A stretch of DNA of 44,899 nt from Escherichia phage Pride, in the sequence record KX534341.1; one strand, given 5' to 3'. A model generated the notes under the pieces. That model had not been told where the DNA came from. It saw nothing but the letters and a program-made list of their open reading frames with translations, and ran no database searches. Positions 7,101-44,899 of this stretch are shown here, in pieces (positions within the stretch are counted from its first letter, which is position 1; each line of letters starts with the position of its first letter). Position numbers and translations under genes: made by a program.

Positions 7101-7425
7101 GCGGGACAAAGCGGGATGTCCCGTTTTGTCCCGCCTCTGTAAAACTGCATATCTAATCACTCCCATTGCATAAACCAAAAGAGGGACAGGCGGGACGTCC
7201 CGTTTTGTCCCACCCCATAAATGTGCATATCTATTCGCATTTCGTGCATAAAACAAACGGGACAAAAAGCGGGACAGACCAGGGGCGGGACAAAGCGGGA
7301 CAGCACCCCGTCCCCGCCAGTGCTGCCGCTGGTTTCAGCCGATCGGGACAGCGGGACAGCACCCCAGTCTTTCAGACTAGACGGGGGTCTGGCACCCCCC
7401 TCGTCTGAGACTGCATAGGGTTTGT
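7101..7425. repeat. GGGACA-array element, copy A: palindromic GGGACA sites (7101..7133, 7183..7211), duplicated TGCATA..GGGACA module, four direct GCGGGACA repeats (7259..7302), two more (7345..7358) and a conserved GC hairpin
   Basis: Direct reading; about 165 bp (7256..7413) aligns with 35432..35590 at roughly 85-90 percent identity. Confidence 0.8.
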
Positions 7426-28684: not shown

Positions 28685-28699
28685 TTTTCATTGTCCTAT

Positions 28700-28723
28700 T
28701 AAAAAGCCCGCATTAAGCGGGCT
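28700..28723 (-). terminator. Intrinsic terminator on minus strand (agcccgc-ttaat-gcgggct-uuuuu)
   Basis: GC stem followed by T-run on the minus strand, 20 nt downstream of the 28743 stop. Confidence 0.55.
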
Positions 28724-28742
28724 TGAATAGTGGGCTTTGCCC

Positions 28743-29525
28743 TTAACGGCGGCGACGTTTACGTGGTGCTTCGTCTTCGTCGTCGTCCTCATCTTCGTCA
28801 TCGCGTGGCTTACGACGTTTGCGAGGTTTTTCATCTTCCTCATCGTCGTCGTCATCGCGGCGCTTGGATTTCTTGGACTTGCGCGGCTTGTCATCTTCAT
28901 CATCGTCATCACGACGTTTTGACTTTTTGGACTTGCGCGGTGCTTCGTCTTCGTCGTCGTTGTCCAGGTCTTCATCGGAGCAAGAAGACCCGCCACCTCC
29001 GAAGGCTTCGCCGTCTTCACGGAATCGCAGACCCAGCAAGCCAGCCCCGAGACCCTTGCCGTTGGTGTTGTTCCACGCCCAAATATCAAGGGACACGTTG
29101 CAATAACAACCAGAGTAGATCTCCTGGCCTTCAATCTCGTCGCCGTCGATGGTCAGACCCTGTTCAGTCTGCTTCTCGCCGAGTGACGTTTGAATGATCG
29201 GCTGTTTGAACGATTTGGCGTTGATGTACAACATGCCTTCGAATTCTTCGGTCACTTCGTCGCGCTCGTCACCGTCGCGGACTGCGCATTCCTTCGAATC
29301 CTGGGCGTAGTGGCGGTCCATCCACTTATCAGCATTCTTCTCGGATTTCAGCTTGTCGGTTAGCACTGCGCGCGCTGCCGCTTCCACTTTGTCCACCTGC
29401 GGATCTTCTTTATCAAGAAGAATCACTGCACGGTATGCCGGTTTTTGTCCATCCTGTTTAGGGGTATCACGTTCCCAAATTTTAAGGAAACATGCGCGCA
29501 CATTTTTCAGGTTGACTTTAGCCAT
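28743..29525 (-). CDS. Putative ssDNA-binding / recombination-associated protein with charged repetitive C-terminal tail
   Basis: ATG 29525 with GAGGA RBS; adjacent to PD-(D/E)XK exonuclease gene; C-terminus made of alternating acidic/basic repeats. Confidence 0.45.
   Translation of the reverse strand: MAKVNLKNVRACFLKIWERDTPKQDGQKPAYRAVILLDKEDPQVDKVEAAARAVLTDKLKSEKNADKWMDRHYAQDSKECAVRDGDERDEVTEEFEGMLYINAKSFKQPIIQTSLGEKQTEQGLTIDGDEIEGQEIYSGCYCNVSLDIWAWNNTNGKGLGAGLLGLRFREDGEAFGGGGSSCSDEDLDNDDEDEAPRKSKKSKRRDDDDEDDKPRKSKKSKRRDDDDDEEDEKPRKRRKPRDDEDEDDDEDEAPRKRRRR
28790..28990. repeat. Imperfect tandem repeats (~54-60 bp) inside CDS 28743..29525 encoding alternating D/E and K/R blocks
   Basis: ggacttgcgcgg recurs at 28875 and 28929; protein repeats PRKSKKSKRRDDDD... 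Confidence 0.7.
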
Positions 29526-31711: not shown

Positions 31712-31759
31712 TGTCTCGTCCTCTAAAAATAGGCCCGCAGATTAGCGGGCCGGATAATA

Positions 31760-32266
31760 TTAATCTTCCAGTTCGAAATAAGTTTCGACGATTTCTTTTA
31801 GCTCTTTGTGGAAGTCTTCGACGTCGTCATCTTCCAGCTTAGCGATTGATTTGATTTCGAACGCGTCCAGCAGATCATCAAATTCGTCGTTCGCGTCGTC
31901 GTCATCACCGCCCGCGATAATCGCGGCATACTGTTTGATCTCGTCGCGCATCTCCGCCAGCGGATCGGCATCTTTCTTGCCTTTGCCCTTCGCCGGTGCT
32001 TTTTTAGACTTAGCCGGTTTTGCGTCTTCGGCGTCTTCGTCGTCATCTTCGACTACTTCTTTTTTAGCCTTACCTTTCGCCGGGGCTTTTTTAGATTTAG
32101 CCGGTTTTTCGTCTTCGTCGTCATCTTCGACAACTTCTTTTTTGGCCTTAGACGGCTTCTTGTCTTCCTGCTTACCAACGGCAGCGCCAACGGTTTCATA
32201 ATGCTTAGCGATGACTTCCAGTGCTACTACGCCGCGAGTGATCAGGTTTACGATTTGCTCAAACAT
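31760..32266 (-). CDS. Hypothetical protein with lysine/alanine/proline-rich and acidic tandem repeats (histone-H1-like tail); first gene of leftward early operon
   Basis: ATG 32266 with GGAGA RBS; 29-aa protein repeat KPAKSKKAPAKGKAKKEVVEDDDED from an ~87-bp DNA tandem repeat (about 31985..32160); acidic C-terminus. Confidence 0.6.
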   Translation of the reverse strand: MFEQIVNLITRGVVALEVIAKHYETVGAAVGKQEDKKPSKAKKEVVEDDDEDEKPAKSKKAPAKGKAKKEVVEDDDEDAEDAKPAKSKKAPAKGKGKKDADPLAEMRDEIKQYAAIIAGGDDDDANDEFDDLLDAFEIKSIAKLEDDDVEDFHKELKEIVETYFELED

Positions 32267-32462
32267 GGTATATCTCCGATTGGTTAAGTTTAGGTGTCGG
32301 CAGTTAACTTCGTCGGTGGCCTTAACATATTGCCAGGTTACGCGTTCTCCCGTTCGGGTAGTGGACCTGGTTATATAATCACGGTTGGGAATCCTGACAC
32401 TTCGATCCGGCCCCTGCGTTGCCCCTCTCCAGTTTGCGTCCTGCATCCTGTCGACGGAGTGA

Positions 32463-32492
32463 ATGATAGATTGGTTGCAGGATGGGTGTCAA
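32463..32492 (-). promoter_or_regulatory. Predicted leftward early promoter (TTGACA-N18-TATCAT) with GCAACCAAT motif in spacer
   Basis: -35 at 32487..32492 and -10 at 32463..32468 on minus strand; upstream of minus operon beginning at 32266. Confidence 0.5.
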
Positions 32493-32503
32493 CAACTAAT
32501 TTC

Positions 32504-32537
32504 AAAAAAAAAGCGCCGAGGCAAAATGCGACGGCGC
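32504..32537 (-). terminator. Intrinsic terminator on minus strand (gcgccg-loop-cggcgc followed by U9)
   Basis: 6-bp GC stem with 13-nt loop and A9 run on plus strand (T-run on minus). Confidence 0.55.
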
Positions 32538-32561
32538 TAACCAATAAGAGACAATGAGACG
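32504..32561 (-). ncRNA. Candidate small RNA (~55-60 nt) transcribed leftward from a TTGAAA-N16-TAATAA promoter and ended by the 32504..32537 terminator
   Basis: Promoter elements on minus strand at 32591..32596 (-35) and 32569..32574 (-10); no ORF; terminator immediately downstream. Confidence 0.2.
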
Positions 32562-32608
32562 GGAATTATTATTACACGCGTGCGCGCCCGTTTCAATATC
32601 CAAAGGAT

Positions 32609-32668: not shown

Positions 32669-32998
32669 ATGAATATCAAAGAAGCAATTGAAGTGTTATC
32701 TAATGCAATCCGCGGCGAAGCGGGTAAATCCTGGTATTACACAAATGCGGTGGATACTCTGTTATTTGAAGTGTCCAGATTATCGCGTGCTGAGAAGGAG
32801 CTTACCGCGAAGCTGGAATTGCTCAACGGCACGGCAGCAAGCAAGCTGCAAAAACACAATGAAGAAATGGAAGAATACAAAAAACAGGTTATCCGTCTAC
32901 GTGAGGAAGGTAAATCCTGGGCGATGATTGCCGAGTTGACCGGAATTAATCAGAGCACAGTGCGCTCCTGGGTACGCAATAATAAAACTTCTAAGTAA
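32669..32998 (+). CDS. Helix-turn-helix DNA-binding protein (putative transcriptional regulator)
   Basis: CAGGAG RBS; C-terminal HTH-like segment (SWAMIAELTGINQSTVRSWV). Confidence 0.6.
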   Translation: MNIKEAIEVLSNAIRGEAGKSWYYTNAVDTLLFEVSRLSRAEKELTAKLELLNGTAASKLQKHNEEMEEYKKQVIRLREEGKSWAMIAELTGINQSTVRSWVRNNKTSK

Positions 32999-35410: not shown

Positions 35411-35592
35411 TGCAGTTTTATTGCATAAAGTAAGCGGGACAAAAAGCGGGACAAACAAGGGGCGGGACAAAGCGGGACAGCACCCCCGTCCCGCCACGGA
35501 TGGCGCGGCTTCCAGAGGAGCGGGACAGCGGGACAGCACCCCAGTCTTTCAGACTAGACGGGGGTCAATGGCCCCCCTCGTCTGAGACTGAA
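35411..35592. repeat. GGGACA-array element, copy B (homologous to 7256..7413), preceded by direct repeats TTGCGCGCATTGGT(C/T)GCC at 35271..35294 and 35325..35350
   Basis: Four GCGGGACA direct repeats, GGGACAGCGGGACAGCACCCCAGTCTTTCAGACTAGACGGGGG...CCCCCCTCGTCTGAGACTG conserved in both copies. Confidence 0.8.
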
Positions 35593-44663: not shown

Positions 44664-44899
44664 ATATGCAGCGATCGGACTGGTTATCGGTCTGGTGGTA
44701 GGATTCTGGCAGGGTGATTCCTACCGAGCTGCCGTTGTGGCGAGAGCATCGCAAGAAGCGCAAGCGAAAGCCCAACGGCAGCAAACTAAGGTTGTCGAGG
44801 GGGCTGTGCAGGCAGAACAGGCCCGCGATGTGGAATACCGGACTATCACGAAAGAGGTTGTGAAATATGTTACGCGTCCTAACCGTCCTGATTGCAGTT
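44519..44899. repeat. Terminal direct repeat, second copy (identical to 121..501)
   Basis: Base identity with window start. Confidence 0.9.
44656..44899 (+). CDS. i-spanin, duplicate partial copy in terminal repeat (truncated by window end)
   Basis: Identical to 258..501. Confidence 0.5.
   Translation, partial: MIKYAAIGLVIGLVVGFWQGDSYRAAVVARASQEAQAKAQRQQTKVVEGAVQAEQARDVEYRTITKEVVKYVTRPNRPDCS

Follow-up and report, generated by a model that had tools for sequence, protein, structure and literature searches.

Charge-patterned repeat regions of variable length in two replication-module proteins of Escherichia phage Pride

Two repeat-bearing genes in the leftward operon

The genome record of Escherichia phage Pride (KX534341.1), a stretch of 44,899 nucleotides (nt) that was analysed whole and is referred to below as the window, carries two genes whose products contain tandem repeats of alternating acidic and basic blocks. 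The first, here called protein A, is encoded on the minus strand at 31760..32266 (168 amino acids (aa) plus stop). It starts at ATG 32266 with the ribosome-binding site (RBS) GGAGAT ahead of it and belongs to phrog_3127, a family annotated '13.88 kDa late protein'. The second, at 28743..29525 on the same strand (260 aa plus stop; start ATG 29525, upstream RBS GAGGAA), is an SSB (single-stranded DNA-binding protein) of the Enc34/T7 gp2.5 type. Both genes lie inside a leftward replication/recombination operon and are labeled hypothetical in deposited records. The original prediction had described both repeat features and had placed protein A at the head of this operon. The features were recovered at the predicted positions with small corrections, and protein A was indeed the first leftward gene, downstream of a near-consensus sigma-70 promoter.

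Judged from its sequence, the phage is a Dhillonvirus. A 1.3-kb stretch around 31760-32266 matched Escherichia phages Gluttony and Lust at 100% identity, and well over a hundred other Dhillonvirus genomes at 92-95%. An assembly artefact had been considered as a source of the repeats; however, the arrangement recurs in records of independent origin, namely those of Gluttony and Lust (100%) and of over 100 other Dhillonvirus genomes, and homologues of protein A and the SSB from many independent assemblies showed discrete unit numbers. This recurrence across independent assemblies indicates that the repeats are not assembly artefacts.

Protein A contains two units, a 26-aa unit 1 (KKEVVEDDDEDEKPAKSKKAPAKGKA; 32066..32143, minus strand, 78 nt) and a 29-aa unit 2 (KKEVVEDDDEDAEDAKPAKSKKAPAKGKG; 31979..32065, minus strand, 87 nt). 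The 29-aa repeat encoded by 87 bp in the original prediction is therefore real, but it is one of two unequal copies. At the DNA level, a repeat search returned an 80-nt pair with 83% identity at a spacing of 87 and a 41-nt pair with 95% identity at a spacing of 78; the array was not reported by Tandem Repeats Finder (TRF) at default settings. Compared codon by codon, the units showed six synonymous and two non-synonymous differences among 26 codons, plus a 3-aa indel.

The charge pattern of both repeat regions was far from random. The protein A linker, which contains the units, holds 22 K/R and 20 D/E and is thus a near-neutral polyampholyte. As predicted, the C-terminus is strongly acidic, with 26 D/E and six K/R in the last 69 aa (100-168; net charge -20, against -19 for the whole protein); 38% of the residues of the C-terminal domain are acidic, giving a high carboxylate density by composition alone. 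The SSB tail holds 28 K/R and 36 D/E in 77 aa and is a low-complexity segment beyond the Pfam domain. Charge segregation was measured as a Das-Pappu-type delta against 5000 shuffles. It reached z = 5.8 for the protein A linker, a value matched by one shuffle in 5000, and z = 10.1 for the SSB tail, matched by none of the 5000. The two regions are 62-83% charged, with strict block alternation and kappa of ~0.44 and 0.56. When all six frames of the window were scanned for 40-aa segments holding 12 or more K/R together with 12 or more D/E, three places were found, including both repeat regions. The third mixed-charge segment, at ~1784 on the plus strand (EKKAEAERRAEAERLAKEKEEAAARKNGDLEAIDKSWKDK), looks helical and not blocky.

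A hypervariable linker in protein A and a modular tail in the SSB

An AlphaFold2 (AF2) model of protein A, run with a 38-sequence alignment, divided the protein into three parts. An amphipathic N-terminal helix (aa 2-27; 32186..32263, minus strand) was predicted with a predicted local distance difference test (pLDDT) score of ~72. It was followed by a predicted disordered polyampholyte linker (aa 28-100; 31967..32185, minus strand), with pLDDT <50 for residues 23-96, and by an acidic three-helix C-terminal domain (aa 101-168; 31763..31966, minus strand), with helices at 102-119, 123-135, and 149-164 and a block-mean pLDDT of 91-95 over residues 101-160. The N-helix and the C-domain were almost invariant among 104 close homologues, and alignments showed that helix residues R11, A15, and E17 were invariant even in relatives with 23-40% identity. 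The linker, in contrast, was hypervariable, ranging from 28 to 92 aa across 101 close homologues and carrying zero, one, or two acidic blocks. Among cultured phages, TheodorHerzl, jat, AV129, and SM_S22 carried one unit, whereas Gluttony and GeorgBuechner carried two. The expectation that copy number would differ between isolates was thus borne out, both for protein A (one versus two units) and for the SSB, whose tails measured 45-82 aa in Dhillonviruses. Both sets of repeats had been described as tails. This was correct for the SSB, where they are C-terminal, but in protein A the repeats make up a hypervariable linker that joins two conserved helical modules, and they are not the functional core.

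Protein A matched phrog_3127 over residues 1-168 (E = 8.3e-52), and Foldseek matched its predicted fold to Q9T1Z8, E7EKT7, and others (E = 6e-4 to 4e-7). No Pfam family and no NCBIfam model matched; the SSB likewise had no NCBIfam match. An exhaustive profile search of 1.84 billion representative proteins returned just 47 relatives, all of which keep the plan of helix, charged linker, and helical domain, a few with two C-domains; this three-part architecture was retained down to ~23-30% identity. Q9T1Z8 of Salmonella phage MB78 and Gp46 of Edwardsiella phage eiAU share the family, the fold, and the helix-disordered linker-three-helix plan. Distant members of phrog_3127 occur in Jerseyvirus (SETP3, SE2), Kagunavirus, and related phages, where they are labeled 'hypothetical' or '13.88 kDa late protein', the latter label having been taken over from MB78 (UniProt Q9T1Z8). 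In contrast to protein A, most of the distant members lack the duplicated linker module.

The genomic position of the family was equally stable. One gene order (primase-helicase, protein A, a small gene, DUF2800 PD-(D/E)XK nuclease, SSB, PolA) was found at 53 viral loci, and the place of protein A in the replication module was fixed across Dhillonvirus and Guernseyvirinae-type phages, down to ~29% identity, and also in Jerseyvirus and Kagunavirus genomes. A literature search found no function assigned to the family, and fold searches with protein A turned up nothing beyond generic helical bundles and uncharacterised proteins from phages. Weaker matches were a region in the C-terminal part of the DUF1071 (Rad52/Sak-type annealase) chain 8qe9 (E = 0.19, below significance), designed armadillo repeats (E = 0.001, from summed sub-threshold repeat matches alone), and DUF6669 and BUD22, both below threshold in the Pfam scan. 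The two Dhillonvirus accessory proteins that have been characterised were considered and rejected as identities for protein A: Ksap1 is a 74-aa protein encoded elsewhere (PMC11564622), and anti-Tmn, the ORF35 product, contains a beta-sheet domain (PMC11846954).

The second gene had been taken for SSB-like, and profile searches confirmed this. Residues 3-193 matched PF10991 (Enc34_ssDNA-bd, DUF2815) with E = 1.8e-31 and 109.6 bits against a cut-off of 26; phrog_112 'Gp2.5-like' was matched with E = 1e-55, and the solved relatives 4jg2, 4klk, and 5odj with E = 4e-11 to 1.5e-10 over residues 3-194. The protein is therefore an Enc34/T7 gp2.5-type OB-fold protein, for which the family predicts a preference for ssDNA. 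The Pfam match and the PDB alignments place the OB fold at aa 1-183 (28977..29525, minus strand), leaving a C-terminal tail at aa 184-260 (28746..28976, minus strand), in which four acidic and four Pro-Lys/Arg blocks alternate and whose C-terminal end reads APRKSKKSKRRDDDDEDDKPRKSKKSKRRDDDDDEEDEKPRKRRKPRDDEDEDDDEDEAPRKRRRR. The gene had been predicted to end in repeats, and a 54-nt tandem DNA repeat (74% identity) encoding PRKSKKSKRRDDDDEDDK modules was found at 28837..28944 (minus strand) by the repeat search; TRF placed it at 28835-28960 with a period of 54 and 2.3 copies. Each repeat encodes PRKSKKSKRR plus an acidic run. An alternative minus-strand frame (28688-29134) is open for 148 codons through the tail and past the SSB stop, and the database SSBs P0109 (phage vB_EcoS-22664B1) and P0112 are frameshifted into it; these frameshifts may reflect either errors made in sequencing the repeat or genuine variants.

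The closest characterised relatives are Enc34 ORF6 (Enc34 being an Enterobacter/Hafnia phage) and T7 gp2.5 (PDB 5odj/5odk/5odl, 4klk, 4jg2), which have in common with the SSB of Pride the OB fold and an Asp/Glu-rich disordered C-terminal extension; the Enc34-type gene order, with a DUF2800 PD-(D/E)XK nuclease and a family A DNA polymerase beside the SSB, is also found here. In crystals, the purely acidic disordered tail of Enc34 ORF6 occupies the DNA-binding groove of adjacent molecules, its removal leads to dsDNA binding, and acidic tails have been said to characterise all prokaryotic and phage SSBs (PMC5686142). By its composition, the tail in Pride is probably disordered and is an acidic-rich C-terminal segment as in the gp2.5/Enc34 family. 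However, it is 77 aa long against ~29 aa in Enc34, and whereas Enc34, gp2.5, and bacterial SSBs end in purely acidic tails with an acidic/hydrophobic tip, here 28 K/R are interleaved in blocks and the last seven residues are PRKRRRR.

Among 108 SSB homologues, a sample biased toward query-like tails because candidates were gathered via shared 5-residue words, tails measured 19-176 aa and held from 0 to 12 basic blocks; 56 tips were basic and 51 acidic/hydrophobic. Jersey-like phages carried a minimal form, a single acidic block followed by PRRERRRR, and Dhillonviruses carried two to four modules. Near-perfect tandem modules were present in distant SSB lineages, which points to repeated, independent, and recent expansions. 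The tail of the Pride SSB thus elaborates the acidic tail of its family, and a poly-Arg tip replaces the acidic/hydrophobic tip in this lineage.

Promoters, terminators and a leader RNA upstream of protein A

The leftward operon is preceded by a sigma-70-type promoter, TTGACA-18-TATCAT (32463..32492, minus strand; 11 of 12 matches), which is conserved in relatives. Directly 3' of protein A lies a hairpin resembling an intrinsic terminator, GGCCCGC-TAATCT-GCGGGCC with a T run after it (31732..31751, minus strand), which is kept in Dhillonvirus loci and some relatives, with the loop inverted once. This layout would fit a separate, strongly expressed early protein A product. A further terminator-like hairpin, AGCCCGC-TTAAT-GCGGGCT with TTTT, lies directly 3' of the SSB gene (28701..28724, minus strand); it was read from the sequence and was not listed by the terminator scan. 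The two hairpins are alike (GCCCGC-loop-GCGGGC plus T run), and their position directly after both genes suggests that the replication operon may be punctuated by terminators needing read-through.

Between the promoter and protein A, a structured leader RNA of ~150 nt was identified in the 5' untranslated region (32298..32457, minus strand; covariance model R1, 175 bits), beginning at the predicted transcription start. The covariance model aligned 20 leader copies and contained five helices. In this alignment 97.9% of cells were paired, against 24-47% when partners were slid, and compensatory changes occurred at 13 of 33 pairs, against at most five when slid; these pairing values were reached by none of 500 shuffles. 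Folding of the single sequence gave no signal (z = +1.28); the structure was visible only by comparative analysis. No Rfam family was matched, and the leader was not found in E. coli genomes. It was present in most Dhillonviruses and missing from some, a presence/absence polymorphism, and it was also found in promoter-proximal positions ahead of unrelated genes in Warwickvirus JK16, Changchunvirus PHB17, and Sortsnevirus sortkaff/IME279, as well as in several uncultured siphovirus contigs of 30-52 kb. Our guess is that it could be a cis-acting antitermination or stabilising leader.

Several records (Opt212, GeorgBuechner, PEC9, Teewinot) begin protein A at ATG 32446, giving a product of 228-231 aa. 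This start was rejected. Across the 60 additional codons (32267-32446, minus strand), variable sites numbered 11, 6, and 8 at codon positions 1, 2, and 3, compared with 2, 3, and 11 in the coding sequence, and the segment was missing in some relatives. Because the extension lacks codon-position bias and overlies the leader RNA, it is non-coding, and the true start is ATG 32266.

Further signals were observed around the divergent control region. Another promoter-like site, TTGAAA-17-AATAAT preceded by a TG, lies at 32596-32568 (minus strand), and ~60 nt past it, just upstream of the main leftward promoter, is a strong terminator-like hairpin (GCGCCG...CGGCGC plus T9). The region holding both (32505-32596, minus strand) is conserved in the Dhillonvirus alignment and could give rise to a short leftward transcript or small RNA. 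Divergent from protein A, a 109-aa gene at 32669-32998 (plus strand) is variously labeled 'nuclease inhibitor gamma', 'transposase', 'resolvase', or 'HTH protein' in records. Pfam showed only a C-terminal helix-turn-helix of HTH_23/Sigma70_r4 type in its product, suggesting that it is probably an early regulator and not a Gam homologue.

Elsewhere in the window, clusters of GCGGGAC-containing repeats were seen at 7108-7360 and 35432-35537 (a 79-nt unit x2.1 and 12-16-nt units x2-4), which could be terminators, iterons, or regulator sites. The motifs ATCGGACTGGTT/ACCAGACCGATA occur at both window ends (4-26, 276-298, and 44674-44696). The window exceeds the Gluttony record (44,513 nt) by ~386 nt, suggesting terminal redundancy or overlapping assembly ends.

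Interpretation of the charge-patterned regions

Both repeat regions are blocky polyampholytes, located in two proteins of one conserved replication/recombination module. Their disorder is predicted by the structural model for protein A and suggested by composition for the SSB tail. Both regions are built and resized via in-frame tandem duplication and deletion of one kind of module, an acidic block plus a Pro-Lys/Arg block. We propose that, in the SSB, the acidic blocks would retain their gp2.5/Enc34-type roles, filling the protein's own DNA-binding groove, discriminating against dsDNA, and docking on basic patches of either polymerase or helicase. Basic blocks and the basic tip would supply non-specific nucleic-acid affinity and could attract the acidic blocks of neighbouring SSBs or partners, so that cooperativity, annealing of strands, and self-association would be tuned. 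Protein A, whose gene comes first after a strong promoter, may serve as an accessory or adaptor of the replication module. Its N-helix would oligomerise or dock on a partner, its acidic domain would bind a basic surface (candidates being the basic tail or tip of the SSB, some DNA-binding cleft, and the basic blocks of its own linker), and the linker would act as a tether whose composition weighs more than its exact length. The descriptive part of this proposal is secure; for the whole, that is, charge-patterned disordered regions together with the roles given to the SSB tail and protein A, we would put the chances at about even.

The linker and tip of bacterial SSBs and mixed-charge or blocky polyampholyte regions such as the acidic/basic tracts of nucleophosmin are likewise disordered, of biased composition, and thought to tune cooperativity and partner binding. 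The likeness consists in a disordered, biased region that links or follows folded domains and differs in length from one relative to another. In E. coli SSB, the linker is rich in Gly/Gln/Pro, has almost no charge, and leads to an acidic DDDIPF tip, whereas the regions described here are 62-83% charged and block-alternating; there is no homology.

Several observations weigh against the proposed roles. Protein A variants of 115-124 aa with almost no linker exist on genome-length metagenomic contigs, implying that the repeated blocks are probably dispensable, and AF2 gave no confident packing of the N-helix on the C-domain, even for a 115-aa short-linker variant (N-helix pLDDT <50; predicted template modelling score 0.49). 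In distant phages whose SSBs have acidic tips, a protein of the same plan occupies the position of protein A. Three such proteins of 145-175 aa were found in Prim-Pol/DUF2800/DUF2815/PolA modules (locus L058, 8308-8835; L059, 4151-4588; L061, 3080-3520), each with an N-helix, a K/P/A/E-rich linker, and a C-terminal helical domain, and one with KPAKKKAPEKKAPAKKEVEEE. Aligned by hhalign, the protein A family profile gave a probability of 53.7% against the L058 protein and 2.4% against the L061 protein, and a database search with the L058 protein returned only itself. Because same-plan proteins also stand beside acidic-tip SSBs, co-occurrence does not discriminate, and a specific pairing of poly-Arg-tip SSBs with protein A was rejected as unsupported. 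Covariation of protein A linker and SSB tail length (rho = 0.55, p = 0.04, n = 14 Dhillonviruses, by a statistic that ignores phylogeny) was too weak for use. The bias of the SSB sample toward query-like tails, given above, points the same way.

The repeats could instead be near-neutral, slippage-prone, low-complexity spacers whose alternating pattern has no function of its own, all that counts being that some flexible and hydrophilic linker or tail is there. Linker length swings widely among otherwise almost identical proteins, the protein A units differ mostly synonymously, which fits recent duplication, and frameshifted database versions exist (P0098, P0104, P0109, P0112). However, the grammar of an acidic block followed by a Pro-basic block is found in both proteins and in 23-40%-identical relatives without alignable repeats, up to 12 modules have been reached independently in distant SSB lineages, and net charge remains balanced. 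We consider this spacer reading unlikely.

An anti-nuclease role for protein A, like that of T7 gp5.9, lambda Gam, or Ocr, would make the acidic domain a DNA mimic filling the DNA site of a host enzyme (RecBCD or a restriction/defence nuclease being candidate targets) and the linker a mere tether. DNA-mimic inhibitors are typically encoded next to exonuclease/SSB recombination modules, and protein A comes first after an early-type promoter beside such a module, with a C-domain that is 38% acidic. Nevertheless, no sequence or structural likeness to any known mimic appeared in the searches run, and the more distant same-position proteins are much less acidic. Moreover, the family is kept with replication genes across Escherichia, Salmonella, Edwardsiella, and other phages, which is better explained by a core function than by host-specific counter-defence. 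Mimicry seems to us improbable.

It is also conceivable that, through their blocky regions, SSB and protein A assemble electrostatically with DNA into a replication compartment, a complex coacervate or condensate, with protein A as an oligomeric hub and module number tuning the material properties. Charge segregation of the degree seen here (kappa ~0.44 and 0.56) falls in the regime where polyampholytes self-associate, and E. coli SSB phase-separates through its tail. The two genes share one module, and the layout of protein A (a helix, ~70 aa of disorder, and three helices) is reminiscent of bacterial hubs such as PopZ. In contrast, PopZ/DUF2497 was not among the families listed at E <= 0.1 for protein A or among the 25 of 46 families listed for 34 relatives, short-linker variants of protein A exist, and Jersey-like SSBs have just one module. 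This co-assembly seems to us decidedly improbable, and we give no better odds to its sharper form, a shared electrostatic code in which the multi-module SSB tail with its poly-Arg tip, an oligomeric acid-headed protein A, and ssDNA bind multivalently to form a hub or condensate tuned by module number.

Finally, the repeats had been called histone-H1-like, and their Lys/Ala/Pro (protein A) and Lys/Arg (SSB) blocks might bind and condense DNA or the nucleoid as H1 or Hc1 segments do. K/A/P-rich repeats are typical of H1 tails, Hc1/Hc2, AlgP, and mycobacterial HupB; KPAKSKKAPAKGKAKK resembles them, short motifs such as KPAKSKKAPAKGK are shared by protein A with histone H1 tails, chlamydial Hc1-Hc2, and AlgP, both genes lie in the replication module, and one of 34 family members touches PF07382 HC2 below threshold (E = 0.01). 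We regard DNA condensation of this kind as very doubtful, since protein A of the window had no significant H1, Hc1, or Hc2 Pfam match, its linker is near-neutral (net +2; whole protein -19) where H1/Hc/AlgP tails are strongly net basic without interleaved acidic blocks, every basic block has beside it an acidic one of the same length, which would cancel its charge, and the basic blocks are the least conserved part, nearly gone in some variants. The name describes a compositional resemblance only, and as a statement of homology it does not hold.

These results have several implications. Both repeat regions are prone to indels, some deposited genomes have them frameshifted, and several records mis-annotate the protein A start. 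The leader RNA may be more novel than the repeats themselves. Protein A is conserved in the replication modules of three groups that phage-therapy collections commonly contain, Dhillonvirus, Jerseyvirus, and Kagunavirus, and the conservation of just two small helical modules narrows the experimental target. In bacteria and phages, SSB tails have been described as acidic throughout, and this charge is central to the recruitment of replisome partners; a large branch of DUF2815/gp2.5-type proteins instead carries expandable acidic/basic modules, often with a poly-Arg tip. If the electrostatic code outlined above were true, SSB partner recruitment would be inverted relative to the canonical acidic-tip paradigm. 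If this basic-module branch also recruits partners by its tail, the acidic-tail rule would not be general, and the branch would offer a natural series of 0 to 12 modules for relating charge patterning to SSB behaviour.

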